From positions 156,689 through 220,688 of the forward strand of contig CBDCXE010000003.1 of the NCBI GenBank assembly GCA_965223725.1: DNA of 64,000 bases. The letters run 5' to 3'. Under the pieces are notes generated by a model. It did no database searches. It saw only the letters and a list, made by a program, of their open reading frames with translations, and was not told the DNA's origin. The stretch is from Nitrospinota bacterium. Its GTDB lineage: Bacteria > Nitrospinota_A > UBA7883. Shown here in pieces: positions 8,234 through 47,683 of the stretch. Every line of letters starts with the position of its first letter. Positions within the stretch are counted from its first letter, which is position 1. The translations under genes were made by a program, and so were the position numbers.

Positions 8234-8327
8234 GGAAGATGAGCGCGCCCGGTGGCGCGGCTGGACTTCAAATCCAGACAGGGGCGAATACGTCCTGGGA
8301 GGGTTCGACTCCCTTCATCTTCCGCCA
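8234..8327 (+). tRNA. selC: tRNA-Sec (selenocysteine tRNA, anticodon UCA)
   Basis: 94 nt: 8-bp acceptor stem GGAAGATG/CATCTTCC, 6-bp D-stem with 4-nt loop, anticodon loop CTTCAAA (UCA), long variable arm, T-arm GGTTCGACTCC, discriminator G, encoded CCA; near-identical in all arms to E. coli selC. Confidence 0.9.
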
Positions 8328-31586: not shown

Positions 31587-32777
31587 TCAGGCGCGTTTGT
31601 CAACGGTCAGCCATTTATTGCCGGCAACTGATATCCCGATGGCGCCCAGCGGCGCGGTCAGTATGATCGATAACACTGCCACCGCTAGGATAATTTCGCC
31701 GCCTTGTATTCCCATCTCCAGCGGTATCGCGCCGATGGCGGCCTGAACAGTGGCTTTTGGAATGTATGAGATCACGCAGAACATTTTTTCGTTCCTGTTG
31801 AAATCGGTTCCATACAACGAAAGATAGGTTCCCACACTCCTCGCTATCAGACCAATCGCTATCAATAATGTACCGATCAAACCGGCGCCGAGCGCAACTT
31901 CAATATTCACCTGCGCGCCTACCAGCACAAACAGCAGTATCTCGGCAAATATCCAGACCTTGGAAAGTTTGTGCGATATTTTGTGGGCCCTGTTCTCCGC
32001 CTTTTCCAGCAGAACAAACCCGATCGTCATAGCACCCAACAGCGCCGACATGCTCAGCTTTGTTTTCAGCTCTTCCTCAAGCCATGTCAGGATCACCGCC
32101 ACTGATATAAGAACTATGGTCATTTTCGTCGCCCGCGGGTGGTATCGCTCGAACAGATGAAGGAGAACATAGCCGGCCAATGCGCCAACAGCGATGCCCA
32201 GTATGATCGCCTCCGGCACTTCCAACAGTTTCCAATATAGCCCTTCGACATTACCGCCATACATCCCCAGCAAAATAGTGAAGATCACAATGACGAAAAC
32301 ATCATCCACCGATGACGCGCCCAACAGCAAGGTTGGGATCCCTTTCTTAACGCCTCTTCGTTTGTCTATAAACCCGATCATAAGCGGGACAACCACAGCA
32401 GGCGAGACAGCAGCCAGAATCGAACCGAGGATCGCGGCCTCCAGATAGCTGATCCCCAACAGCGGGGGCGCGGCCAGGGTGACGATCGCCCCTTCTAATA
32501 TGGCCGGCGCCGTGGCCATGACCAACGCGGTTTTGCCGACACGGTTCAATGTGTCCTTCCGAAGCTCCAGCCCGGCCCGCAACAGGATGACGATCAGCGC
32601 GACCATACGAAGATCAGCGGAGACCACCAGCAACTCCGGCTGGATAATGTTGAACACATGCGGTCCGCAAAGCACGCCAAAGAGCAGCATCCCAACAAGC
32701 CCTGGCAGGTTGAGTTTACTGAAAAGGTATTCCGACAGCAGCCCAAGCAGGATGATCAATGCAATGCTTATGGCCAC
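31587..32777 (-). CDS. cation:proton antiporter (CPA1/NhaP-type Na+/H+ exchanger)
   Basis: About 12 TM helices; Na+/H+ exchanger family N-terminal pattern. Confidence 0.75.
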   Translation of the reverse strand: MAISIALIILLGLLSEYLFSKLNLPGLVGMLLFGVLCGPHVFNIIQPELLVVSADLRMVALIVILLRAGLELRKDTLNRVGKTALVMATAPAILEGAIVTLAAPPLLGISYLEAAILGSILAAVSPAVVVPLMIGFIDKRRGVKKGIPTLLLGASSVDDVFVIVIFTILLGMYGGNVEGLYWKLLEVPEAIILGIAVGALAGYVLLHLFERYHPRATKMTIVLISVAVILTWLEEELKTKLSMSALLGAMTIGFVLLEKAENRAHKISHKLSKVWIFAEILLFVLVGAQVNIEVALGAGLIGTLLIAIGLIARSVGTYLSLYGTDFNRNEKMFCVISYIPKATVQAAIGAIPLEMGIQGGEIILAVAVLSIILTAPLGAIGISVAGNKWLTVDKRA

Positions 32778-33675: not shown

Positions 33676-34088
33676 ATTTACTCCGAAAGATAAGTGTAAA
33701 GATAAATTGGAAGGATACCCCGCCCGCGCTCCATTTGCAAGGGGCGAAGGGCGAAGAGGGCTGAACAGTCCAGGCGCGCCAGACGAGTCGAAAGTCCGCC
33801 GGGCCGGATGGCCGCAGGCTCGATCAATCAACAATGTAAAACCAAATTCATATCCACGTCATAACAGACACTCCACAGTAAACAGTTACCACGCACACAT
33901 TAATATAATAATAAATTTATGAATAAAGTCAAGAAGGAAATGAAAAGTTGGTAGGGTGGGTGATTGGTAGGGGAAGGTAAAAATAAAAATCTGTAAAAAG
34001 CGACTAGACCGGTGGAGTGAAAAGTTGAATTAGTGAAATAAATTGTGCTACCCTTTATTTATAAACAAACAAGGGTTCAATTATTACA

Positions 34089-34529
34089 ATGCTTAATTCA
34101 TCAATTACAACATTACCTAATACAGATGTGCTTCAGGATATTTCGGACACTATTAAGTTTCTAAAAAAAGAAGCACATAAAAAGTTTTCATTTTTGAAAG
34201 TTATATGGAAAGTATTTAAAATACAGGCGAAATTTAGAATTTTATTGAATAATATCGAACTAATTGAAAAAAAATCATTTGGAATAGCAAAGCCAGACCA
34301 TCAAATTTGGCAAGAAATAAAAGATCAACTTTCGGTAGCTTGTTCTGATAGTAATGAATTTATTGCCATACTGAAAGATTACAACTATTTAAAGCTTTTT
34401 ATTAAATCTCAAGAAGAAATTTCAGATAGATTTGAAGAAAAACTCGAAGCCTATCAATTTGTAGGGGATAGCGAAGCCAATGACTTAATGAATGAAATAG
34501 CTGAACTGGCAACGCGTGACAGTGGATGA
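34089..34529 (+). CDS. hypothetical alpha-helical protein (first gene of AT-rich cassette)
   Basis: 146 aa ORF in the AT-rich island; 14-nt overlap with the downstream RelE/HigB-like ORF; no recognised family. Confidence 0.4.
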   Translation: MLNSSITTLPNTDVLQDISDTIKFLKKEAHKKFSFLKVIWKVFKIQAKFRILLNNIELIEKKSFGIAKPDHQIWQEIKDQLSVACSDSNEFIAILKDYNYLKLFIKSQEEISDRFEEKLEAYQFVGDSEANDLMNEIAELATRDSG

Positions 34530-34866
34530 TTTACTACCCTTCTTTGCTCGACAGATAGACAAGATATTAAAAAGCTATCCTAACTCAAATAGCTCCCTCA
34601 ATAACCTACTTTTAAAGATATCAGATAATCCATTATCATTCGGCAATCGAATGCCAGGTTTCGATCAACATATTAGGAAAATAAGAGCAGGTTTTCCAGA
34701 GTATAAGATTTCTAAAAGAGATGGAGCGCGTATTATTATATTGGTTACAGAGCAGCAAAAACCAATATTTATATCTATTTATTTAAAATCTAAGTCCAAA
34801 GGCGAGCAGGCTGAAATAAAATACATAAAAGATAAACTTAAGGAAATAAAATCTGAGTTGGAATAG
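34516..34866 (+). CDS. RelE/ParE/HigB(Gp49)-superfamily toxin-like protein
   Basis: C-terminal core IRKIRAGFPEYKISKRDGARIIILVTEQQKPIFISIYLKSK fits the RelE/HigB pattern (G..R.iy...g..i.i..i..K). Confidence 0.45.
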   Translation: MTVDDLLPFFARQIDKILKSYPNSNSSLNNLLLKISDNPLSFGNRMPGFDQHIRKIRAGFPEYKISKRDGARIIILVTEQQKPIFISIYLKSKSKGEQAEIKYIKDKLKEIKSELE

Positions 34867-34955
34867 TGGGGTCAGGTCTTTGATTTTGATATTCCATGAA
34901 ACGATTTCTGCGGCGCAGTAGCTGAGCGTTCCAATTCATAACAGCAATCCGTGTG

Positions 34956-35273
34956 CTATTGCGCAGTAAGCACTTCCAGTTGAACACCTTCTTTCTTTTG
35001 CAGATAATTAATCATTTCAAAAAGATTTTGCGCCTGGGGGTTGCCGCGGGCGCCGAGCATGCGCATCAGGCTTTTGGGTGATTTGTTCATGGCGCGGGCC
35101 AGCTCCTCGAAACCTATGGTGGCGTTAATATAATCGCGAAGCGCCGCCTTGCCGGTCTCCATATCGTTGGCAAGCATGAGCTGGACAGCTTCCGTCAGTA
35201 ACGCGTTGCGGAACCCTTTATCATGCAGCGCGCGCTCCTGAATTGTCTCTTTAAAATCCCGTGTCAATACCAT
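34956..35273 (-). CDS. higA: HigA-family addiction-module antidote protein
   Basis: Antidote-protein pattern (TIQERALHDKGFRNALLTEAVQLMLAND ... MNKSPKSLMRMLGARGNP); overlaps the upstream toxin gene. Confidence 0.75.
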   Translation of the reverse strand: MVLTRDFKETIQERALHDKGFRNALLTEAVQLMLANDMETGKAALRDYINATIGFEELARAMNKSPKSLMRMLGARGNPQAQNLFEMINYLQKKEGVQLEVLTAQ

Positions 35274-35619
35274 CCTGTTTTTCCTCTCTTTTCCTCTTCT
35301 TATAATCCAGCCATAAAAGTTTGGCGCTCTCTATATCCTTCTGTTGCCGTTTTTTCGTGCCGCCGCCCAGCAAAATAATTAGCCGGTCTCCATCTTTACC
35401 AAAGTAAATTCGGTAGCCGGGACCAAAATCGAGCCGCAATTCCCAGACACCGGCTCCAACGCTTTTATGGTCGGACAAGTTGCCCAGTTCGACCCGTGTC
35501 AGAGCTATGGTTACCCGCACGGCGGTAGTTGCATTCAGACGATTGAACCATTTTGCGAATGGACTTTTGCCATGTGTGTCCAAATACTCTCTGACTTCAA
35601 CCATGTTAAATGGTAACAT
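35251..35619 (-). CDS. higB: addiction-module killer protein (HigB/RelE-like toxin)
   Basis: VGAGVWELRLDFGPGYRIYFGKDGDRLIILLGGGTKKRQQKDIESAK matches the killer-protein family; likely start at internal Met (AAGGT 6 nt upstream); the ORF-track start at 35706 is an extension. Confidence 0.7.
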   Translation of the reverse strand: MLPFNMVEVREYLDTHGKSPFAKWFNRLNATTAVRVTIALTRVELGNLSDHKSVGAGVWELRLDFGPGYRIYFGKDGDRLIILLGGGTKKRQQKDIESAKLLWLDYKKRKREEKQDGIDTGF

Positions 35620-35731
35620 ATACGTTACCTTTGTTAACCATAAACCTGATTGCGCCCCGGCCCCCGCGATAGTAGACTTCTTGTACGGCTTGATGCGTGG
35701 GTTCAACTGGTTACAGGAGTGATGCTGTCGA

Positions 35732-36424
35732 ATGAAAAATTTTCTCTATCTGCTTTTCAAATCGTTTGTGGATGTGGTCCCTCTGATCGTGGTGATCTTC
35801 TTCTTCCAGGTGATCGTCATGGGCAAAACTTTTGAGAACCCGATCCAGATCGGCGGCGGGCTGGTCCTGGTGATCTTCGGGCTGTTCCTGTTCATGCGCG
35901 GGCTGGAGGTCGGCCTCTTCCCGCTGGGCGAGAGCATGGCATACTCCTTCGCCGAACGGGGCAACATATGGCTGCTGCTATCGTTCGCCGCCGCCATCGG
36001 CTATACAACCACCATCGCCGAACCTGCGCTAATCGCCATCGCCGACAAAGCGGAGATCATCACCGACGGCAAGCTGACCGCCTTCTCATTGCGTAACGCT
36101 GTGGCCATCGGTGTGGCGGCCGGCATCGCCATCGGCACGTTGCGGATCATCCTGGGCCACCCGATCCACTACTACATAATCACCGGCTACATGATCGTGA
36201 TGGTGGTCACCATTTTTGCGCCGCAGGAGATCATCGGCCTGGCCTACGACAGCGGCGGCGTCACCACATCCACCGTCACCGTCCCGCTGGTGACTGCGCT
36301 GGGGGTAGGGTTAGCGAACTCCATCGCCGGGCGCAACCCGATGATCGACGGGTTCGGGTTAATCGCCTTCGCGTCGCTGACACCGATGATCACCGTCATG
36401 GGATACGGGTTGATCATGCTATGA
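35732..36424 (+). CDS. DUF1538 family membrane protein
   Basis: Polytopic; internal duplication typical of DUF1538; paralogous to the next gene. Confidence 0.7.
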   Translation: MKNFLYLLFKSFVDVVPLIVVIFFFQVIVMGKTFENPIQIGGGLVLVIFGLFLFMRGLEVGLFPLGESMAYSFAERGNIWLLLSFAAAIGYTTTIAEPALIAIADKAEIITDGKLTAFSLRNAVAIGVAAGIAIGTLRIILGHPIHYYIITGYMIVMVVTIFAPQEIIGLAYDSGGVTTSTVTVPLVTALGVGLANSIAGRNPMIDGFGLIAFASLTPMITVMGYGLIML

Positions 36425-37143
36425 GAGCCGCACTCGAAACCATAGCGTTCGACTTCCTGTCGGTCATCCGCGATGTAGGGCCGATGCTGGCGGTGATCCT
36501 GTTTTACCAGCTTGCCATCCTGCGGAAAAAACTGCCGAACGTGAAGATGATCATCCTCGGCTTCCTTGCGGTGATGGGCGGGTTGTACCTGTTTTTGATC
36601 GGTCTGGACATCAGCATCTTCCCCATCGGCGAGGCATTGGCAGAGCAGTTCGCCGTGGGCGAAAACCGGTGGTGGCTTTACGCCTTCGCGTTCGCCATGG
36701 GCTATTCCACCACCATGGCGGAACCGGCGCTGCTGGCCATCGCCATCAAGGCCGAAGAGATATCCGCCGGCGGCCTGCCCAGCCTCTACCTGCGAAACGC
36801 CGTGGCCACCGGTGTGGCGCTCGGTTTGACGCTGGGTGTGTATCGGCTGATCTCGGGCGACCCTTTGTGGATATATATACTGATTGGATATATCGTCACC
36901 ATAGCGCTGACCTACGCCGCGCCGAAGGAGATAGTGCCGCTGGCGTACGACAGCGGCGGTGTGACCACATCTACCATCACGGTGCCGTTGGTGGCGGCGC
37001 TGGGCCTAGGGTTGGCGACACATATCCCGGGCCGCAACCCGCTGATCGACGGGTTCGGGCTGATCGCCTTCGCGTCGGTGTTCCCTATGATTTCGGTATT
37101 GGGCTACGCAACCATAATAAAATTAAAAAATCGAAGTGTATAA
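36421..37143 (+). CDS. DUF1538 family membrane protein (paralogue)
   Basis: Clear paralogy with the upstream gene (…AYDSGGVTTSTxTVPLV…GRNPxIDGFGLIAFAS…); start overlaps the upstream stop. Confidence 0.7.
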   Translation: MRAALETIAFDFLSVIRDVGPMLAVILFYQLAILRKKLPNVKMIILGFLAVMGGLYLFLIGLDISIFPIGEALAEQFAVGENRWWLYAFAFAMGYSTTMAEPALLAIAIKAEEISAGGLPSLYLRNAVATGVALGLTLGVYRLISGDPLWIYILIGYIVTIALTYAAPKEIVPLAYDSGGVTTSTITVPLVAALGLGLATHIPGRNPLIDGFGLIAFASVFPMISVLGYATIIKLKNRSV

Positions 37144-37159
37144 TCAGGAGGTATGAACA

Positions 37160-37507
37160 ATGTTTAACCTTATATTTACAATCTGCCCGGCGGATAACCA
37201 GACAGAGGTCATGGAAGCGGCGAAGGCCACCGGCGCGCGGGGCGCCACCATACTATCCGCCAGGGGCACAGGGCATAAGGAGGCGACCACCTTTTTCGGG
37301 CTGAGCCTCGACCGGCCGCAGGAGGCGATGGTAATGCTGGTGGAGAAGGGCCATAGCGCGGATATCATGCAGGCGATCTACGACGCTGGTAATATGAAAG
37401 AGCCGGGCAATGGCATATGCTTTTCGCTGCCGGTGGACCATGCCATGGGGCTGGAGAGCCAGCTGTGCGTGCTGCCGGATGATGATAACGATGATGATGA
37501 CCAGTGA
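37160..37507 (+). CDS. P-II (GlnB)-like signal-transduction protein with acidic C-terminal tail
   Basis: PII-like fold pattern (TGARGATILSARGTGHKE ... T-loop-like region) and the conserved DUF1538/PII-like genomic association; tail LPDDDNDDDDQ. Confidence 0.55.
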   Translation: MFNLIFTICPADNQTEVMEAAKATGARGATILSARGTGHKEATTFFGLSLDRPQEAMVMLVEKGHSADIMQAIYDAGNMKEPGNGICFSLPVDHAMGLESQLCVLPDDDNDDDDQ

Positions 37508-37551
37508 CGGTCTGTTTGATACAATATAGTATTGGAACAAGGAGAGGTTTG

Positions 37552-37767
37552 ATGACGAAGAAGACGATAAATATTGATGGCATGAGCTGCGGCCATTGCA
37601 TAAACTGGATATCTGAAGCGCTGGAGAAGATCGATGGGGTGGAGACTGCGAAGGTGAGCCTAGAAGCGCAAAACGCCAACGTGGAATACGACGAAAATAT
37701 AGTGACCGAGCAGATGATGCAAGGCGCCATAGAAAAAGCTGGATATACGGTCAAATCATTTACATAA
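37552..37767 (+). CDS. heavy-metal-associated (HMA) domain protein, CopZ-like
   Basis: GMSCGHC metal-binding motif; AAGGAGAGG RBS before the ATG at 37552. Confidence 0.8.
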   Translation: MTKKTINIDGMSCGHCINWISEALEKIDGVETAKVSLEAQNANVEYDENIVTEQMMQGAIEKAGYTVKSFT

Positions 37768-37802
37768 GCCGGCATACCCCATAACTTCCTCGGATATATA
37801 AC

Positions 37803-39032
37803 ATGAGCCGTACGGCTTCGGTAATTACAATAGTTGCGACCATTTTTGCGTTGTCGCTGGCGTTCGCTTTTACTGGACCAGGCAAAGGAATTTATAAGCC
37901 GGGCCCTTTACTGTCGGGGCATGAAAGGTTTGGGACCGCTTGCCAGGCTTGTCACGAAAGATGGAGCGACCCATCGGAAGAAAAATGTATAGTTTGCCAC
38001 CAGCATCTTAAGAAAGACGACACCCACTCGGCCAAAGCAATGGCGAATCCGGTCAAGGCCGTTATCCCGGCCGAACTGGAGAAGCTAGGCTGTGTGTCAT
38101 GCCATATGGAGCATATGGCTGACATCATTTCATCCGGATATACCGGCCCGCTCGACTTTTGTATCGGTTGCCATCCGGTGGATAAGCTGAACCTGGGGCA
38201 CAAAAAATTTGGCAATAAATCGTGCGCCGAATCGTCGTGCCATAACTATCATTACAACCTGCCCGTAGAAGAATTTAAAACTTCCAGTAATGTCCGGCTA
38301 TTGCCATCTACCATAAAGGTAGTAAAGCCAGAGCCGAAAGAGCGCTTTAAAGCGACCGATGAAGTGATGGAGGCCATGCGCGGCTCCAAATTTTATAAAT
38401 CGAACAAGATAATATCCGCCCAGTATAACCTGAGCGATCACAACGGCACTGAGGCCACATGCGACAAGTGCCATAAAACGAAACTCGGTTTGCGAACCCT
38501 TCAGCCATCGATTAATGTTTGCATGTCTTGCCATGAGTATCAGACCAGGACGTTTGGGTTTGGCAGGCATGGCGCCCCGTCGCGGCTGAAGGTCGCGCCG
38601 GCGGAAGATGAAAGCGCGCAGGTCGGATGCGGGTCGTGCCACGATGTGCACAGCCTGAGGCAGGAAAACTCCAGATATCAGGCATGCGTCCGGTGCCATG
38701 AAAATGACCATGAATTAAATTACAGTAAATCCGGGCATTCGCGGTACCTGACCGACCCTGTGTTTAATCTGAAGCCGATGAAAGGCGCCGACTGCGCCAC
38801 CTGCCATATGCCATTGATGGAAAACGCCCAGGGGGCCACCATGCATAATGAAAGCTATACATCATCATCCAGATGGAAAATGGCTGAAACCGTATGCGTG
38901 CGGTGCCACGGCCTGGAGTTTGCGCTGCGTGGCCTGTATGACAATGGTATGGTCAAGCATGGCTTCACATTCTCGCCAGACTCCACCCCGGTGGGGATTG
39001 AATACGGATTCCGTAAAACGGATGTAAAATAG
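37803..39032 (+). CDS. multiheme (deca-heme) cytochrome c, secreted
   Basis: Signal peptide; 10 CXXCH motifs (CQACH, CIVCH, CVSCH, CIGCH, CDKCH, CMSCH, CGSCH, CVRCH, CATCH, CVRCH) plus one CX4CH. Confidence 0.85.
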   Translation: MSRTASVITIVATIFALSLAFAFTGPGKGIYKPGPLLSGHERFGTACQACHERWSDPSEEKCIVCHQHLKKDDTHSAKAMANPVKAVIPAELEKLGCVSCHMEHMADIISSGYTGPLDFCIGCHPVDKLNLGHKKFGNKSCAESSCHNYHYNLPVEEFKTSSNVRLLPSTIKVVKPEPKERFKATDEVMEAMRGSKFYKSNKIISAQYNLSDHNGTEATCDKCHKTKLGLRTLQPSINVCMSCHEYQTRTFGFGRHGAPSRLKVAPAEDESAQVGCGSCHDVHSLRQENSRYQACVRCHENDHELNYSKSGHSRYLTDPVFNLKPMKGADCATCHMPLMENAQGATMHNESYTSSSRWKMAETVCVRCHGLEFALRGLYDNGMVKHGFTFSPDSTPVGIEYGFRKTDVK

Positions 39033-39065
39033 TAGATATAGACTGTTAGGCTGGTAATTAAGAAA

Positions 39066-40520
39066 ATGTATTCACAATCACAAACATTAAAATCTCTGGT
39101 CAATTCACCGCAATTGGCGGGCGCCCCGGTGGAAGCGGTGGAAAACCTGATCGAACATGGAGATTTGACCCACATCCCCGCCGGGGAAGTGATCATCGAA
39201 GAGGGCGAGTTCGAGATGATCAGTTACTATGTCCTGGAAGGGAAGTTCCAGATCCGGGTCACCGACAGAGAGACAGGCGAAAAACGCCTGGCATGGGAAG
39301 TGGGCCCCGGTAAAATTCTGGGCGCCATGGCTATATTGGGCGGCACACCCCGCATCGCCGAGGTGAAATGCGTCAAGAACGCCACAATGTTAAGGATAGA
39401 GCGGAAGCACCTGCTCGACTTCCTGGCGGCGGCCCCCACTGTAAAAGCGCGCTTGGATAATACGTATAAGGAAAAGGCGCTTTTGCACGTCTTGATGAAG
39501 GTCGACTTTTTCTCTCATATAGAAGGGCCGGTGATGCAGGCGCTGGCCAAGAAGGTCGAACTGAAGTTCTATAAAAAGGGTGACGTGATCTTCTATCACG
39601 GGGACCGGGCCGAAGAGTTTTTCATGATCCGGGACGGATTCGTGAAGGTTTCCCGCGCCATCAGCGAGGCGGACGCCGCGTTTTTCGATTCCCGGTTCGA
39701 CAAGACCCAGATAAACCCGATGAAAGAGCAGAAAGATGAAGAGTTCATTATGGGCTATATTGGCCCGGGCCAATATTTCGGCGAGCTGGCGCTGTTCGAT
39801 AACCGAAGACGCTCCGCCACGGTCACGGCGTTGACCCGGCTGGAACTGGTGGTTATCACAAGAAATGATTTCCAGGCCCTGATACTGCGCTATCCGGAGA
39901 TAGGGCAGAGGATGCGGGAAGTGGCGGATTATCGATATGCAAGTGACAAACAGCTGGCCCAGTCGAAGCAGGATATGCTCAAATGGGTGGCCAGCCATGA
40001 CATACTGGCGGCGGAGTCGCTGTTGATCCTGGATCTGAACCAATGCATGCGCTGCCTCAACTGCATCAGCGCCTGCGCCAAGCTCCATGACGGCGTCACC
40101 CGCATCACCCATAACGGTGTGCGCTATAAAAATATATTGATACCCACATCGTGCCGCCACTGCCGCGAACCGACCTGCATGATAGGCTGCCCCACCGGCG
40201 CGATACAGCGCGACATCCATGGCGAAGTGTTCCACACCGATTCATGTATCGGGTGCGGCAATTGCGCGTCTCGGTGCCCCTTTGGCAATATCAGCATTGT
40301 GGAGCTGAGCAGCGGTAAAAAGTGGTGGGCGCGTCCGGGCCGTGGCAACGGTGGATCCCCGAAGGCGCGGATCCCCGCCAAGATAGACAAGCGTGCCGTT
40401 AAATGCGATATGTGTATGGATTACGATTACATGGGTTGCGAGCATAACTGCCCCACGGGCGCCATCAAATCGGTCAAGCCATCCGAATATTTCGCCAAAT
40501 ATTCACAGGAAGACAAATGA
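39066..40520 (+). CDS. protein with two cyclic-nucleotide-binding domains fused to 4Fe-4S ferredoxin (polyferredoxin) domains
   Basis: Two cNMP-binding beta-roll segments (GEVIIEEGE...RIAEVKC; GDVIFYHGD...RRSATVTA) and four Cys clusters (CMRCLNCISAC, CRHCREPTCMIGCP, CIGCGNCASRCP, CDMCMDYDYMGCEHNCP). Confidence 0.8.
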   Translation: MYSQSQTLKSLVNSPQLAGAPVEAVENLIEHGDLTHIPAGEVIIEEGEFEMISYYVLEGKFQIRVTDRETGEKRLAWEVGPGKILGAMAILGGTPRIAEVKCVKNATMLRIERKHLLDFLAAAPTVKARLDNTYKEKALLHVLMKVDFFSHIEGPVMQALAKKVELKFYKKGDVIFYHGDRAEEFFMIRDGFVKVSRAISEADAAFFDSRFDKTQINPMKEQKDEEFIMGYIGPGQYFGELALFDNRRRSATVTALTRLELVVITRNDFQALILRYPEIGQRMREVADYRYASDKQLAQSKQDMLKWVASHDILAAESLLILDLNQCMRCLNCISACAKLHDGVTRITHNGVRYKNILIPTSCRHCREPTCMIGCPTGAIQRDIHGEVFHTDSCIGCGNCASRCPFGNISIVELSSGKKWWARPGRGNGGSPKARIPAKIDKRAVKCDMCMDYDYMGCEHNCPTGAIKSVKPSEYFAKYSQEDK

Positions 40521-41329
40521 CCGACGAAGCTTATCGTTTATTGGCCCTTAGCGCGGCCACGGTATTGATCGCATTCGGTATTGGTTTCGTAGAGCCGTTC
40601 GCCTATGAGAGGTCGTTTGGATCATTTTCCATCAAGCCGTATTTCGGTTGGCTAACCTTGCTTTTTGCCATCGTCTCTGCGTTATACAGCCTCCGCAAAA
40701 GGGTTGTCATACAGCTCCCGGGCAGACTAATTGTCTGGAAACTGGCGCACATAATCCTTGGCCTTACCGTGCTGGTCCTGATGTATCTGCATTCTGGCGG
40801 GGCCATGGGGCAAGGAGCTTCGCTGGCGGTAAATTTACTGGTGGTCGGGCTGCTGCTGACTGGGGTCTGGGGCATAATTAACCAGGGATTGATACCCAGG
40901 ATAATGACCGAATCGTTGGAGGATCCGGTCTATAAAAGCGAATTGCAAGATGATGTGAACGAAATGCTAAAAGAAATCTCTGATGATCTGGACGAGCAGT
41001 CACCCGAGTTTAACCGGATCTACCAGCGCCATATATTACCGGCGATCACTCTGGAACATCCCACGGAAGGTAACCAGAAAGCGCTCTATCAACGTTACGA
41101 CCCATCCTCCAACGATCCCACCGCCGCCATCCAAGACCTGAACGCCATGAGCCTGGGTGAAATTGAAGATTTCTACCAAATGGCCGAGAAGGTGATGGAC
41201 ATTGTGGAAATCCGCCGAAGCCAGACTTATCAGCGTAACATGAACCATTGGCTTGTTTGGCACGTGGGTATGACCGCGGCGTTGGGTGTGGCCCTTTTTT
41301 TCCATGTGCTCGCTTCGCTATATTTTTAA
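40517..41329 (+). CDS. hypothetical integral membrane protein (4-5 TM), last gene of cytochrome operon
   Basis: Hydrophobicity; start overlaps the stop of the upstream gene. Confidence 0.5.
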   Translation: MTDEAYRLLALSAATVLIAFGIGFVEPFAYERSFGSFSIKPYFGWLTLLFAIVSALYSLRKRVVIQLPGRLIVWKLAHIILGLTVLVLMYLHSGGAMGQGASLAVNLLVVGLLLTGVWGIINQGLIPRIMTESLEDPVYKSELQDDVNEMLKEISDDLDEQSPEFNRIYQRHILPAITLEHPTEGNQKALYQRYDPSSNDPTAAIQDLNAMSLGEIEDFYQMAEKVMDIVEIRRSQTYQRNMNHWLVWHVGMTAALGVALFFHVLASLYF

Positions 41330-41386
41330 TGGAACTCTGGAATGGTTTGTTATAGTATTGAAAAAGTTTAATTTGGGAGATTGTTA

Positions 41387-41758
41387 ATGAGTGATACATT
41401 GAAAAAAGTTTTATTGATAGTGACCACCAGCGATGAAGAGACCTTCCGCGCAGGGATGCTCAACGCCGCCAACCTGCTGGCGTCTGATGTAGAGGTGCAG
41501 TTTTTCATCAGCCAGCAAGCGTGCAATTTTTTTACCAAAAGCAGTTTTGACAGCGCGCCGGATGGGACAACGACTGTGAAGGGCCGGGTCACCGATGCGA
41601 TGAAACTTGGGGCCAGTATAATTATCTGCCGAACAGCCATCGCCAACTATGGCCTGGGGCCGGAGGATTTCATCGACGGTGTGGACGCCACAAAAGGCTG
41701 GATGGATATCGTTGATGACCAGATCGATCCTAACGTACAGGTTGTGTGGGTTGGATAG
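41387..41758 (+). CDS. DsrE/DsrF-like family protein
   Basis: KKVLLIVTTSDEET...QFFISQQA pattern of the DsrE/YchN-like fold; GGGAGA RBS before the ATG at 41387. Confidence 0.55.
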   Translation: MSDTLKKVLLIVTTSDEETFRAGMLNAANLLASDVEVQFFISQQACNFFTKSSFDSAPDGTTTVKGRVTDAMKLGASIIICRTAIANYGLGPEDFIDGVDATKGWMDIVDDQIDPNVQVVWVG

Positions 41759-44400: not shown

Positions 44401-46116
44401 ATGTTATCAAGCAGATTCAATAAAACCTGGTTCTTCTATAGTTTTCCAATTACGCTTCTGATAGCGCTGGTAACGCTGGACGCAGGGGTCGGCCATGCCT
44501 TTTCGCTGGGCAAAATCCGGGTCACCGGCGCCTTCGAAAGCCCGTTCCGGGCGGAAATCCCTGTGCGCTCCAACGGTATGGAAGGTCTGCAGGCGTGGCT
44601 GGGGGACGAAAACGATTACCGGAAAATGGGGCTGGAGCGGCCAGCGATCATAGACACCCTGTCGCTGGAGGTGGCCGACCATCCAATCCATAGCGACCAG
44701 AAAATTATCTATATCACCGGCACAGAGCCGATATCACAGCCCTCATTCAACCTGGCCATCAAAGCCGCGTTGGGCAGCGGCGTGATCCTGGAGAATTATT
44801 TTCTGGCGCTTGACTTCCAGAAAAACCTCAGCCTGGAAGCGCCCACCACCAAAGAGGAACGCGAAGAGATGAAAAAGGTCGCCAGCGAGCTTGAAGCGCT
44901 GCGCCCCGGGGCGGATAAAAAAATCGTAGACCAGGAACAGGCCGCCGTGGTGGAAGGGGCGGAGCTGATGTCGGAGCTGGACAAAATCCGCGCCGAGGAA
45001 GAGATAGCGGAAGCGAAGAGAAATAACAGAAACGCCGATAAACCGGCGGCGGTGGTGAAAAAGAAAAGCGTGACCATGAAAGAGCCTGCCGTTGTGGAGC
45101 GGGAAATAACATCTGTAGATATAGAAACAGCATATATAGACCCAAAGCCTGCAGCTCAAACAGCTAAACAGGAGACAGCGCCACAGAAAAAAGCGTCCGA
45201 TGTGATGGCGATAGCCTTATCTTCCGACCCGGCGAAGAACCGGTATGATGTGGTGGGCGGCGACACCTTGTACCAGGTCGCCAAAAAACTGGGCGCCACC
45301 GACAAGGACCTGGATCGCGTGGTGGTAGCGTTGTGGAAAGATAATAAAGAGCATTTCATCGATGGCAACATTCATGGGCTGCTGAAAGGGCGGACCCTCG
45401 ATTTTTCCAGCGTAAACGAAACCTTTCACAATACAACGCATGAAGAAGCGAACAAAGTGATCATGGGACAGTGGCCCGAATGGCAAGCGTTCAGAAGATC
45501 GTTAAAACCGGCGCCGGTGATGAAAGCGAAAGCCGCGCCTGCGGATCGACCGGCAAAAAAAGCTGCTGGTGGCGACCTTACCGTGGAGCCGGTCGGCCTG
45601 GAGATGTCCGCCGAGGAACAGGCATCGCTGGCGGACGAGTCGGCGCCGGAGGAAACGCAAAGCCATCCCTATGTGTTGCATGTGGCGTCGTTCAAAAAGC
45701 GGGACGACGCGCGGGAGCTGGTGTCGCTGTTGCGGAGCAAGGGTGTGAGCGCGTTTGAAGTGTTAAGCTCCATCGCTAATAAAGGTGAATGGTACCGGGT
45801 TGTGACGAACCGGTTCGATTCTCCGGCGGAGGCGGAGGAATTTTCCGAGAAGATCGGCAAGCTGGGCGTCTCCCGATACACCCGCATCCTCAACCTGCCG
45901 TACGCCATACAGATAGGCGCCGATATCGGGCAGGCGGAAGCGAAGACCAAGCTGGACGAATTATACAAAGCCGGAATTTCCGCATACAGCATGGACAGCG
46001 GCAGGGAAGGCTATGTGCGGCTCTACTCCGGCGCGTTCGAGTCGGCGGCGAGCGCGGACCTGGCGATGGACTCTCTTCCTCAAATCGGCATACGTTATAG
46101 CGTGGTCCAGCCTTGA
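44401..46116 (+). CDS. FimV-like protein with LysM-like and C-terminal SPOR domains
   Basis: Signal/TM then FimV-N motif (FSLGKIRVTGAFESPFRAEIPV), LysM-like segment (DVVGGDTLYQVAKKLG), coiled-coil/low-complexity region, two SPOR-like repeats at the C-terminus. Confidence 0.65.
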   Translation: MLSSRFNKTWFFYSFPITLLIALVTLDAGVGHAFSLGKIRVTGAFESPFRAEIPVRSNGMEGLQAWLGDENDYRKMGLERPAIIDTLSLEVADHPIHSDQKIIYITGTEPISQPSFNLAIKAALGSGVILENYFLALDFQKNLSLEAPTTKEEREEMKKVASELEALRPGADKKIVDQEQAAVVEGAELMSELDKIRAEEEIAEAKRNNRNADKPAAVVKKKSVTMKEPAVVEREITSVDIETAYIDPKPAAQTAKQETAPQKKASDVMAIALSSDPAKNRYDVVGGDTLYQVAKKLGATDKDLDRVVVALWKDNKEHFIDGNIHGLLKGRTLDFSSVNETFHNTTHEEANKVIMGQWPEWQAFRRSLKPAPVMKAKAAPADRPAKKAAGGDLTVEPVGLEMSAEEQASLADESAPEETQSHPYVLHVASFKKRDDARELVSLLRSKGVSAFEVLSSIANKGEWYRVVTNRFDSPAEAEEFSEKIGKLGVSRYTRILNLPYAIQIGADIGQAEAKTKLDELYKAGISAYSMDSGREGYVRLYSGAFESAASADLAMDSLPQIGIRYSVVQP

Positions 46117-46135
46117 TCGGGCACGGCTTCATTTT

Positions 46136-46354
46136 ATGGCAAGTGAAATAAAACTTTTAATCAAGGGTATGTCTTGCGGTCGGTGTGTAAAGGAGGCCAA
46201 GGACGCGCTGGAGGGCGTGTATGGTGTGGAGCAGGTGGCGCTGAGCATGGTGAAAGGCACGGCCCGGATAACATACGATGAGAATATCGTGGGCAAGGAA
46301 CGATTTATCCAGACAATAAACGACATCGGCTTTGAGTCTGATAGTGATCAATAG
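46136..46354 (+). CDS. heavy-metal-associated (HMA) domain protein
   Basis: GMSCGRC motif; 72 aa from the ATG at 46136. Confidence 0.7.
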   Translation: MASEIKLLIKGMSCGRCVKEAKDALEGVYGVEQVALSMVKGTARITYDENIVGKERFIQTINDIGFESDSDQ

Positions 46355-46393: not shown

Positions 46394-47683
46394 ATGGTAA
46401 CAGCAGCGCCTTTTAAAGGCATCACCTATAACCCGGACATAATAACAAACCTCAGCGATGTCCTGGCGCCACCCTATGATGTGATATCGCCGACCATGCA
46501 GGACCAGTTGCACCAACTGCATGATCATAATGTTATCCGGCTTATTCTGGGCAAGACCGGCAGTGAAGATAATGATGAAAACAACCGCTATACCAGGGCG
46601 GCGGAATACCTCGGACAATGGCTTGAAGATGGCTCTTTAACCAGAAGTGACGAGCCTGCCATCTATCTCTATTCGCAGGAATATAACATTGGCGATACAA
46701 AATCACACCGGCTGGGCTTTATCTGCCGCGTCCGGCTGGAGCCGTTTGGCGCCTCTATATACCCGCATGAGCGGACCATGTCCGGGCCAAAGGAGGATCG
46801 GCTGAAGCTTATGAAAGCGTGCGAAACCAACTTTTCGCAGGTATTTGGCTTGTATGCGGACAAGGAGCTGACCCTCGATACAGTATGGGAAAATGTTATG
46901 CGGCAACCAGCCGACATGTCCGCCACTGTGGAAGGGATCGAACATGAGGTATGGGTTATCTCAAACAAAAACGTCATCAATCAGATAACCAGCTTCTTGA
47001 CCGATGTTACCGTCGTTATTGCCGATGGCCATCATCGATATGAAACCGCGCTGAACTATAGCCAGTGGCGCAGGGAGCGGGATAACGAAAACCGAAACGA
47101 CGCCGATTACGATTATGTGATGATGTATTTGTCGAATATCCACTCGCAAGGGTTCACTGTGTTGCCGACCCACCGCATTGTGACCGATAAATGTGAAGCC
47201 AACCTCGAAGCGCTGCTTGAGCGGCTGAAAACCGATTTTGACATAGTGGAACGGCAAGTCACACCAGACATGGCGGGAGAGTTTGAAAAGGAACTAAAGG
47301 CGGCGGGGGCGAATGCGCCCAGCTTCGGGATGTATCTGGGGAACGGGGCCATGAGCCTTTTGACCATGAAGGGCGAAGTGTTGTCAACTTTGAACAGCAC
47401 ATTGCAGCGGCTGGATGTGACGATCCTGCAGGAGAGGATATTGGAAAACGCGCTGGGCATTTCCAAGGAGCAGGTGGCCAGCAAATCCGCCGTTTGTTAT
47501 ATGGTGGACGCCGGCGGCGCCATGGAGCTGGTGGACAACGGTGTGGCGCAGGCGGCCTTTCTGATGAACAATACAGAGGTGGATCAGGTAATGGATGTGG
47601 CGACCTCTTGCGGGGTAATGCCGCAGAAATCGACCTATTTTTATCCGAAACTGATTTCGGGGCTGGTGTTCAATCCGTTGTGA
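46394..47683 (+). CDS. DUF1015 domain-containing protein
   Basis: Conserved N-terminus PFKGITYNP ... LAPPYDVIS and overall length typical of DUF1015. Confidence 0.75.
   Translation: MVTAAPFKGITYNPDIITNLSDVLAPPYDVISPTMQDQLHQLHDHNVIRLILGKTGSEDNDENNRYTRAAEYLGQWLEDGSLTRSDEPAIYLYSQEYNIGDTKSHRLGFICRVRLEPFGASIYPHERTMSGPKEDRLKLMKACETNFSQVFGLYADKELTLDTVWENVMRQPADMSATVEGIEHEVWVISNKNVINQITSFLTDVTVVIADGHHRYETALNYSQWRRERDNENRNDADYDYVMMYLSNIHSQGFTVLPTHRIVTDKCEANLEALLERLKTDFDIVERQVTPDMAGEFEKELKAAGANAPSFGMYLGNGAMSLLTMKGEVLSTLNSTLQRLDVTILQERILENALGISKEQVASKSAVCYMVDAGGAMELVDNGVAQAAFLMNNTEVDQVMDVATSCGVMPQKSTYFYPKLISGLVFNPL

Follow-up and report, generated by a model that had tools for sequence, protein, structure and literature searches.

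We analysed a 64-kb window of a Nitrospinota genome (assembly GCA_965223725.1, contig CBDCXE010000003.1, positions 156,689 to 220,688) in which seven co-directional genes, g1 to g7, occupy positions 35732-41329 of the + strand, with coordinates verified against the list of open reading frames (ORFs) and by translation. The string begins with a pair of DUF1538 membrane proteins, one UmpA-like (g1, 35732-36424) and one UmpB-like (g2, 36421-37143), after which come a PII-like protein whose C-terminal tail is acidic (g3, 37160-37507) and a CopZ-like metallochaperone of the HMA type, predicted to be cytoplasmic (g4, 37552-37767). It continues with a putatively periplasmic c-type cytochrome with 11 heme motifs and, at its N-terminus, a signal or anchor helix (g5, 37803-39032), a predicted cytoplasmic protein in which Pfam recognizes two tandem cyclic-nucleotide-monophosphate (cNMP)-binding domains and a polyferredoxin with four [4Fe-4S] motifs (g6, 39066-40520), and a five-span inner-membrane protein, predicted to be a di-heme cytochrome b of the PCC3/PCC4 inner-membrane protein (IMP) type (g7, 40517-41329). 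An earlier note on this DNA had read the seven genes as a single regulated redox system. Our comparisons suggest instead that the coupling is very probably a lineage-specific juxtaposition of two independent modules, which we call module A (g1-g4) and module B, or the trio (g5-g7).

The tight, co-directional packing described in the earlier note is real: from g1 to g7 the junctions measure -4, 16, 44, 35, 33 and -4 nucleotides (nt), taking ATG 37552 as the start of g4, and the domain assignments were verified with Pfam and NCBIfam. This ATG has a strong AAGGAGAGG Shine-Dalgarno sequence 5 nt upstream and yields a product of 71 amino acids (aa), the length of the product on record and of its orthologues. 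No terminator-like site was found at any of the six junctions, and because the gene string contains no detectable terminator, co-transcription of g1-g7 in this genome is plausible. Compared with shuffled sequence, the region has no excess of promoter- or terminator-like sites, so the boundaries of an operon cannot be set from sequence; of the proposal that the modules are fused transcriptionally, what stands is that read-through is plausible, while the fusion itself is not demonstrable by these means. A search of the whole window with Rfam returned a single match, to a tRNA-Sec gene, and no riboswitch or leader near the cluster, and no FNR/CRP or sigma-54 motif common to the regions upstream of g5 was found in 12 loci.

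The division into two modules is apparent when gene order is compared across relatives. Our sample comprised 15 distinct informative loci (labelled L0xx) from Nitrospinota or Nitrospinota-like metagenome-assembled genomes (MAGs) and metagenome contigs, found by genome and metagenome scans with a g7 alignment and by context look-ups, and compared by tblastn with g1-g7 and the next ORF downstream, g8. The order and orientation g5-g6-g7 are kept in 12 of the 15, and the other three (L006, L030 and L033) carry g6-g7 without an adjacent g5, which makes g5 separable from the g6-g7 pair. Upstream of the trio or duo, homologues of g1-g4 occur in none of the 11 loci that have 3.4-7.3 kb of upstream sequence (tblastn). 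The trio is usually followed downstream by gyrA-TPR-serS; upstream lie microcompartment shell genes together with an RpiR-type regulator in divergent orientation, or else genes that are unrelated. Module A has its own conserved setting, a DUF1538-DUF1538-PII-CBS-HMA cluster in L016/L017/L018 and L019/L020, with a 71-aa HMA protein after PII-CBS; in L034 the order is DUF1538-DUF1538-PII-CBS-nitroreductase, without an HMA gene. The two modules lie ~580 kb apart on one 2.2-Mb contig of GCA_016208975.1. On a 27-kb contig of L019 they are convergent and ~5.5 kb apart, with genes for a 96-aa hypothetical protein, a DUF1858 protein, serS, a TPR protein and gyrA between them, and the simplest account of the arrangement in the window is that an L019-like state was rearranged. 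The synteny check proposed for the seven-gene set thus found no other genome that shares the neighbourhood, each half being conserved separately, in a sample without close sister genomes (18 window proteins were looked up, and the 11 found were all singletons at 90% identity).

Several trio loci have features of their own. In two Nitrospinota lineages (L001:2493-4711 and L012:185-7073) the trio lies next to, and in divergent orientation to, an RpiR-type regulator and a bacterial microcompartment (BMC) locus that encodes BMC shell proteins, EutN/CcmL, an aldehyde dehydrogenase, an RnfC-like protein and a class II aldolase. In GCA_015231995.1 (L002, L006) a g5 orthologue stands alone on another contig (L002), beside a DUF218 gene. 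L003/L010 (JAJRZK010000024.1) carries two copies of the g5 orthologue in two mirror-image loci, the second copy inverted ~6 kb from the first; either the trio was duplicated in inverted orientation or the contig was misassembled.

Within module A, g1 and g2 each match PF07556 over its full length (232 and 223 bits) and form an adjacent paralogous pair with a 4-nt overlap. Their top matches are UmpA and UmpB of the NCBIfam pair NF041627/NF041628, at 258.5 bits against an equivalog cut-off of 490 and 238.4 bits against one of 500. Judged by these matches, g1 and g2 are members of the UmpAB family, and since the scores are about half of the cut-offs, functional equivalence is not demonstrable. 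Orthologues of g1 in L016 and L019 (55-72% identity) are always accompanied by a second DUF1538 gene and a PII-like gene, and the closest relatives of g1 and g2, both in L019, share 72% and 68% identity. The description of DUF1538 proteins as functionally uncharacterised is outdated: UmpAB of Halomonas zhaodongensis, the single characterised DUF1538 pair, is a heterodimeric two-component Na+(Li+,K+)/H+ antiporter (PMC5484666). The resemblance lies in two adjacent paralogous DUF1538 genes that are predicted to encode a membrane heterodimer; the difference is that here the pair is followed by a PII-like gene, normally by a CBS gene and often by an HMA gene, none of which is mentioned for umpAB. 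A cation/H+ secondary transporter of the UmpAB type is the best-supported reading of the module from its sequence. The window also encodes an Na+/H+ exchanger (PF00999, 167 bits; 31587-32777, - strand) ~3 kb upstream of the DUF1538 pair, so that a conventional antiporter lies close to the UmpAB-like pair in this genome.

The product of g3 matches the Pfam P-II family (PF00543) at 33.4 bits, above the gathering cut-off of 25. Because no NCBIfam model matches it and its similarity to solved PII proteins is weak (best E value 5e-4), we describe it as PII-like rather than as GlnB or GlnK. Its homologues fall into 33 clusters at 59-72% identity, the four with a taxon name all being Nitrospinae/Nitrospinota, and in 4 of 4 contexts examined the homologue follows a DUF1538 pair. 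In transporter/PII-like pairs such as SbtA-SbtB, a small PII-superfamily protein is presumed to gate the transporter according to adenine-nucleotide status. By analogy, module A is presumably regulated by its PII-like protein, in relatives together with the CBS protein, through adenine-nucleotide sensing; a small PII-superfamily gene directly follows a membrane transporter gene in both cases, although SbtA belongs to another transporter family than DUF1538. No homologue of the CBS gene was found anywhere in the window, and by its gene content this genome has evidently lost the CBS-domain gene that normally lies between PII and HMA.

The remaining member of the module, g4, consists of a single HMA domain (Pfam HMA, 60.6 bits; TIGR00003, 64.5 bits against a cut-off of 62) with the metal-binding motif GMSCGHC, of the MxCxxC type, and falls below the cut-off of the specific CopZ models (80 against 91). 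It has no export signal or hydrophobic N-terminus, and the lack of a signal peptide indicates a cytoplasmic protein. A role as the periplasmic partner of the cytochrome was considered and rejected: the protein has no signal peptide and travels with module A, where its variable presence among DUF1538/PII clusters marks it as a variable accessory. A second stand-alone HMA gene (46130-46340, + strand; Pfam, 50.6 bits) lies elsewhere in the window, flanked by a FimV/SPOR gene (44401-46116) and a DUF1015 gene (46394-47683).

Turning to module B, g5 contains 10 CXXCH motifs, one CX4CH motif (CAESSCH) and a single N-terminal hydrophobic helix at residues 5-23. The CX4CH site had been listed in the earlier note beside a cytochrome called decaheme; all of these motifs are present, yet the full pattern is kept in 116 of 120 homologues, and g5 is therefore better described as a protein with 11 heme motifs. 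Across 73 aligned sequences, the 11 motif histidines are invariant and are accompanied by exactly 11 further invariant histidines, a number that would fit eleven bis-His hemes, that is, a wire. CXXCK occurs in 0 of the 120 homologues, and an NrfA-like assignment was rejected on this ground. No other ORF of the 64-kb window has two or more CXXCH motifs, which leaves the window without tetra- or pentaheme cytochrome genes, and in every trio locus the g5 orthologue is the sole type of gene with at least two such motifs.

In g6, two cNMP_binding domains (131 bits) are followed by matches to Fer4 families (Fer4_11, 30.5 bits), with 16 cysteines in four clusters and no transmembrane (TM) segment. 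The N-terminal half resembles the tandem cyclic-nucleotide-binding (CNB) domains of the regulatory subunits of protein kinase A, and the C-terminal half the polyferredoxins HycB, HydN and NrfC. Fifteen of the 16 Fe-S cysteines are invariant and the sixteenth, C397, is at least 90% conserved, fused relatives included. The CNB-B cassette (FGELAL..RRSAT) is canonical, as are both phosphate-binding cassettes in the orthologues. At residues 86-100 the CNB-A cassette of this genome reads GAMAIL..PRIAEV, where 8 of 8 orthologues have GEMS..PRxAE; the ribose-contacting Glu is replaced by Ala in this genome only.

The 270-aa product of g7 matches no Pfam or NCBIfam family, and Pfam returns nothing even at E<=10. 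Its AlphaFold2 model (pLDDT 85.5) has TM helices at residues 2-25, 40-62, 71-92 and 101-133 and at the end of 213-269, in agreement with hydropathy, and includes a clade-specific helical insert of ~100 aa, predicted to be cytoplasmic. W74/H78/H92 and W245/H249/H263 do not vary among 20 clade members. Of the 146 best remote matches, 143-145 retain W74, H78, H92, G116 and G119, and in 124 remote sequences covering TM5 the residues W245, H249 and H263 are kept in 123-124; the loop residue His172 is not conserved among remote relatives. On TM4 the motif T115-G116-V-W-G119 conforms to [S/T]GxxG, position 115 being S in 91 and T in 45 of 146 remote sequences (S or T in 136) and the two glycines being present in 145 and 144. 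Homologous clusters number 27 among 5.8 billion proteins, every named one from Nitrospinota, and an exhaustive profile search recovered at least 1,866 representatives (50% identity) at E<=1e-3, of which just 8 reached E<=1e-30.

These features coincide with those that He et al. (2017) described for the PCC3/PCC4 IMP, a protein of ~300 aa with five TM helices, SGXXG on TM4, and WX3HX13H on TM3 and TM5, for which two b-hemes were proposed (PMC5566968). Like that family, g7 has the appropriate length and five TM helices, [S/T]GxxG on TM4 and WX3HX13H on TM3 and TM5, which implies that g7 too would bind two b-type hemes. To our knowledge, such binding is unproven for the published family as well. 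The mean K+R count is 3.35 in loop 2 but 0.4 in loop 1 and 0.25 in loop 3, and these charges place the N-terminus inside, the insert in the cytoplasm and the C-terminus outside; with this predicted topology, H78 and H249 would lie close to the cytoplasm, H92 and H263 close to the periplasm.

Gene fusions in distant relatives bear on how the three products work together. Proteins of ~800 aa combine two cNMP-binding domains, Fer4 and a C-terminal g7-like domain (P0268, P0276, P0297, P0312 and P0327). Named relatives of these fusions are P0332, which belongs to the P0312 cluster, and P0340, which counts as a named relative only, its domains not having been scanned; both are from Acidobacteriota. 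P0213 (476 aa) joins Fer4 to a g7-like domain, and P0293 (705 aa), whose cluster has a named member from Thermodesulfobacteriota, joins a g7-like domain to a multiheme cytochrome c that follows it. A g5-like cytochrome with 27-29% identity also occurs in Filomicrobium, Tropicibacter and an Oceanospirillaceae MAG. Its gene there follows one for a Pyr_redox_2/Rubredoxin_C flavoprotein of 640-690 aa, whose C-terminus matches the g7 profile at an E value of ~1e-8 and has the same His motifs. These independent fusions connect g7 physically with a cytoplasmic reductase at its N-terminal side and with a periplasmic cytochrome at its C-terminal side.

The proteobacterial genes form a cluster of their own in three unrelated Proteobacteria (L022:7975-12613, L023:7989-12971 and L024:8069-12915), consisting of the NirB-like flavoprotein with its g7-like domain, a g5-like cytochrome with 11 motifs, a Tll0287-like protein, a globin and, in 2 of 3 loci, a small cytochrome c. 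From its gene content it looks like an NAD(P)H-driven version of the g5-g7 conduit in the style of the NADPH oxidases (NOX), possibly linked to NO or O2 chemistry. These distant g5 homologues were considered as full ptd clusters and belong to a different cluster, of which we found no description in the literature.

We favour, with a probability of about 0.7, an explanation in which two independently conserved modules have come together and the second encodes a three-subunit electron conduit. The order of the genes, their motifs and conservation, the synteny, the fusions and the similarity of fold are what the analysis itself shows; bound cofactors, a complex, the topology, the direction of electron flow and gating by cNMP are inferred from these. 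Module A would comprise a heterodimeric secondary transporter of the UmpAB type formed by the DUF1538 proteins, a PII-like regulator and an accessory cytoplasmic CopZ-like chaperone, and read-through may well co-transcribe it with module B in this genome. That the products of g5-g7 form a transmembrane electron conduit is in itself probable, if less secure than the juxtaposition. In such a complex g6 would be cytoplasmic, with four [4Fe-4S] clusters behind its two cyclic-nucleotide-binding domains, and would probably dock on the cytoplasmic helical insert of g7. The latter would span the membrane five times, N-terminus in and C-terminus out, holding b-hemes through H78 and H249 on the cytoplasmic side and H92 and H263 on the periplasmic side, and g5 would be a periplasmic cytochrome with eleven c-hemes, either tethered to the membrane or secreted. 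Electrons would most likely pass from a low-potential cytoplasmic donor through Fe-S clusters, heme b and heme c to a periplasmic acceptor, and cNMP binding to g6 may modulate this flow.

Other explanations have to be weighed against this one. The view taken in the earlier note unites all seven genes in one system: a DUF1538 transporter gated by the PII-like protein and a metal chaperone would cooperate with the cytochrome set to reduce or detoxify metals or metalloids. It draws support from the tight spacing with no terminator-like site at any junction, from the occurrence of both modules within ~5.5 kb of each other in L019, and from the HMA protein adjoining the redox module. The arrangement is nevertheless absent from all 11 other loci with enough upstream sequence, the modules are 580 kb apart in one genome and convergent and split by housekeeping genes in L019, the HMA protein lacks an export signal and belongs with the transporter cluster, and orthologues of the trio otherwise neighbour gyrA-TPR-serS or BMC loci. 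We regard a single functional system as very unlikely, and it is not borne out by the comparisons; what does hold of the regulated redox set is its g5-g6-g7 part, a conserved module of a periplasmic multiheme cytochrome and a cyclic-nucleotide-binding Fe-S protein with their membrane partner. A bolder version of the conduit, in which g6 acts as a cNMP-gated valve that switches electrons to an undecaheme protein related to hydroxylamine oxidoreductase (HAO), reducing a periplasmic nitrogen oxide or other oxidant, and in which the fusion of the modules in this lineage is adaptive, is distinctly unlikely. If it were true, placing the trio behind a PII-controlled cation/H+ transporter and a copper chaperone would co-regulate ion and metal homeostasis with periplasmic redox chemistry.

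The remaining alternatives concern module B by itself. It could be a respiratory module linked to quinones. In that case g7 would be a quinol- or quinone-active cytochrome b, the role that He et al. proposed for the PCC3/PCC4 IMP (PMC5566968), and would exchange electrons between the quinone pool and the periplasmic cytochrome, leaving g6 as a regulator or side branch. In favour of this, g7 shares fold similarity with CybB, FdnI and cytochrome b6, di-heme b proteins that react with quinones. We find this unlikely: g7-like domains are repeatedly fused to polyferredoxins and to an NAD(P)H flavoprotein, and fusion to cytoplasmic redox domains follows the direct-transfer logic of NOX and the superfamily of ferric reductase domains (FRD), which leaves no need for quinone as an intermediate; g6 and g7 share a 4-nt overlap, the Fe-S cysteines of g6 are nearly all invariant, and no quinone-site motif was identified. 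Equally doubtful, and compatible with a conduit formed by g6-g7, is the idea that g5 is an enzyme, a distant relative of HAO and octaheme nitrite reductase that reduces periplasmic nitrite, NO or hydroxylamine with electrons supplied by g6-g7. The solved structures that resemble the g5 model are HAO, HAO-like proteins, octaheme nitrite reductase and NrfA only, some homologues match Pfam Cytochrom_C552, one bears the name nitrite reductase from its source, and the g5-like genes of Proteobacteria are neighboured by those for a globin and a NirB-like flavoprotein. The relatives of the trio are Nitrospinota MAGs, and this phylum is known for nitrite oxidisers. On the other side, the match to HAO-type structures is partial and weak (191 residues aligned, Foldseek TM-score 0.3), those enzymes have 8 or 5 hemes against 11 motifs in g5, CXXCK is absent and no conserved Tyr/Arg/His catalytic triad was identified, and the 11 invariant non-motif histidines would suit an all-bis-His protein with no open site. 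Finally, electrons might flow inward: module B would take them from a donor in the periplasm, for instance a reduced carrier, Fe(II) or Mn(II), and pass them to the cytoplasm; PCC4 is found in genomes of Fe(II) oxidisers and has been modelled as an uptake route (PMC5566968). This direction is distinctly unlikely, as there is no second multiheme cytochrome in the window or near any trio, and the gene tables of L001, L012, L014 and L019 list no porin family (PCC porins often lack a Pfam match, and no search aimed at porins was made). Reduction of low-potential [4Fe-4S] clusters by donors at the level of Fe(II) is uphill, and the proteobacterial variant has a cytoplasmic NAD(P)H flavoprotein, more naturally a donor.

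The surroundings of the cluster contain several further features. Directly upstream of g1, the stretch 33900-35706 includes an island of low GC content (0.29-0.37 at 34000-35000), in which two ORFs belong to no family; adjoining it is a gene for a Gp49/HigB-like toxin (35251-35706, - strand) with a small putative antitoxin (34956-35273). The island and toxin genes are mobile-type insertions between glyQ and the cluster. Downstream, g8 (41381-41758, + strand) is co-directional with g1-g7 and starts 51 nt past g7; it is a weak DsrE-like ORF (Pfam DsrE, 21.9 bits against a cut-off of 22.7) that lies in neither conserved module, and it was rejected as an eighth member of the cluster, having 0 homologues in the related loci at E<=1e-4 (tblastn). 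The tRNA-Sec gene (8234-8323, + strand; Rfam, 76 bits) indicates that the organism uses selenocysteine.

Among known systems, Tmc and Hmc of sulfate reducers also join a periplasmic multiheme cytochrome c to a membrane cytochrome b and a cytoplasmic Fe-S protein. The trio resembles them as an architecture that links periplasmic and cytoplasmic redox pools, and differs in that Tmc and Hmc have an HdrD-like CCG protein, a NarI-like cytochrome b and no cNMP-binding domains. The FRD superfamily (NOX, FRE) and prokaryotic cytochrome b561 (CybB, FdnI) have six or four TM helices against five in g7, no Pfam model reaches threshold for g7, and its partners are a cNMP polyferredoxin on the cytoplasmic side and a multiheme cytochrome c on the outer side. 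Viewed with the fusions, the g7-type domain repeatedly connects interchangeable cytoplasmic reductases, whether a cNMP-polyferredoxin or an NAD(P)H flavoprotein, with g5-type multiheme cytochromes.

The closest counterpart is the cluster described first as PCC4 subgroup II, in which an Fe-S (pfam13247) gene lies upstream of the IMP and is accompanied by genes for a porin, for periplasmic cytochromes with 4, 5 and 10 hemes and for other redox proteins (PMC5566968), and later as ptdABCDEFG, in which an outer-membrane porin and an FAD/NAD(P) oxidoreductase are encoded (PtdB, PtdC), PtdE has cNMP and 4Fe-4S domains, PtdF is a TM ferric-reductase-like protein and PtdG is a decaheme cytochrome (bioRxiv 10.1101/2023.11.21.568154). 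We equate the two because their composition matches. Their function has been inferred from genomics, neither paper containing experimental evidence (PMC5566968; bioRxiv 10.1101/2023.11.21.568154), and one Nitrospina MAG is among the listed carriers. By architecture and signature, rather than by sequence-to-sequence comparison, g6, g7 and g5 match PtdE, PtdF and PtdG: an Fe-S (pfam13247-type)/cNMP protein stands beside an IMP-like protein, and the cytochrome combines an N-terminal hydrophobic helix with 10 CXXCH sites. The combination of genes had been thought undescribed, and although its redox part corresponds to part of PCC4/ptd (PMC5566968; bioRxiv 10.1101/2023.11.21.568154), the seven-gene string was found in no other locus. 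The trio differs from PCC4/ptd in gene order (decaheme, Fe-S, IMP here; Fe-S, IMP, decaheme there), in the clade-specific insert of g7 and in having no 4-heme and 5-heme cytochromes nearby in Nitrospinota. Given the absence of a second multiheme gene, the different order, and the lack of a porin or flavoprotein (Pyr_redox) family in the gene tables read around the trio in L001, L012, L014 and L019, the trio looks most likely to be a stripped-down variant of PCC4/ptd rather than a full member. The seven-gene coupling itself is not worth pursuing as a system, but as a compact three-gene version of PCC4/ptd, lacking the extra cytochromes and with no porin noted nearby, the trio would be a convenient minimal system in which to address quinone-free electron transfer, its direction and its gating by cyclic nucleotides.

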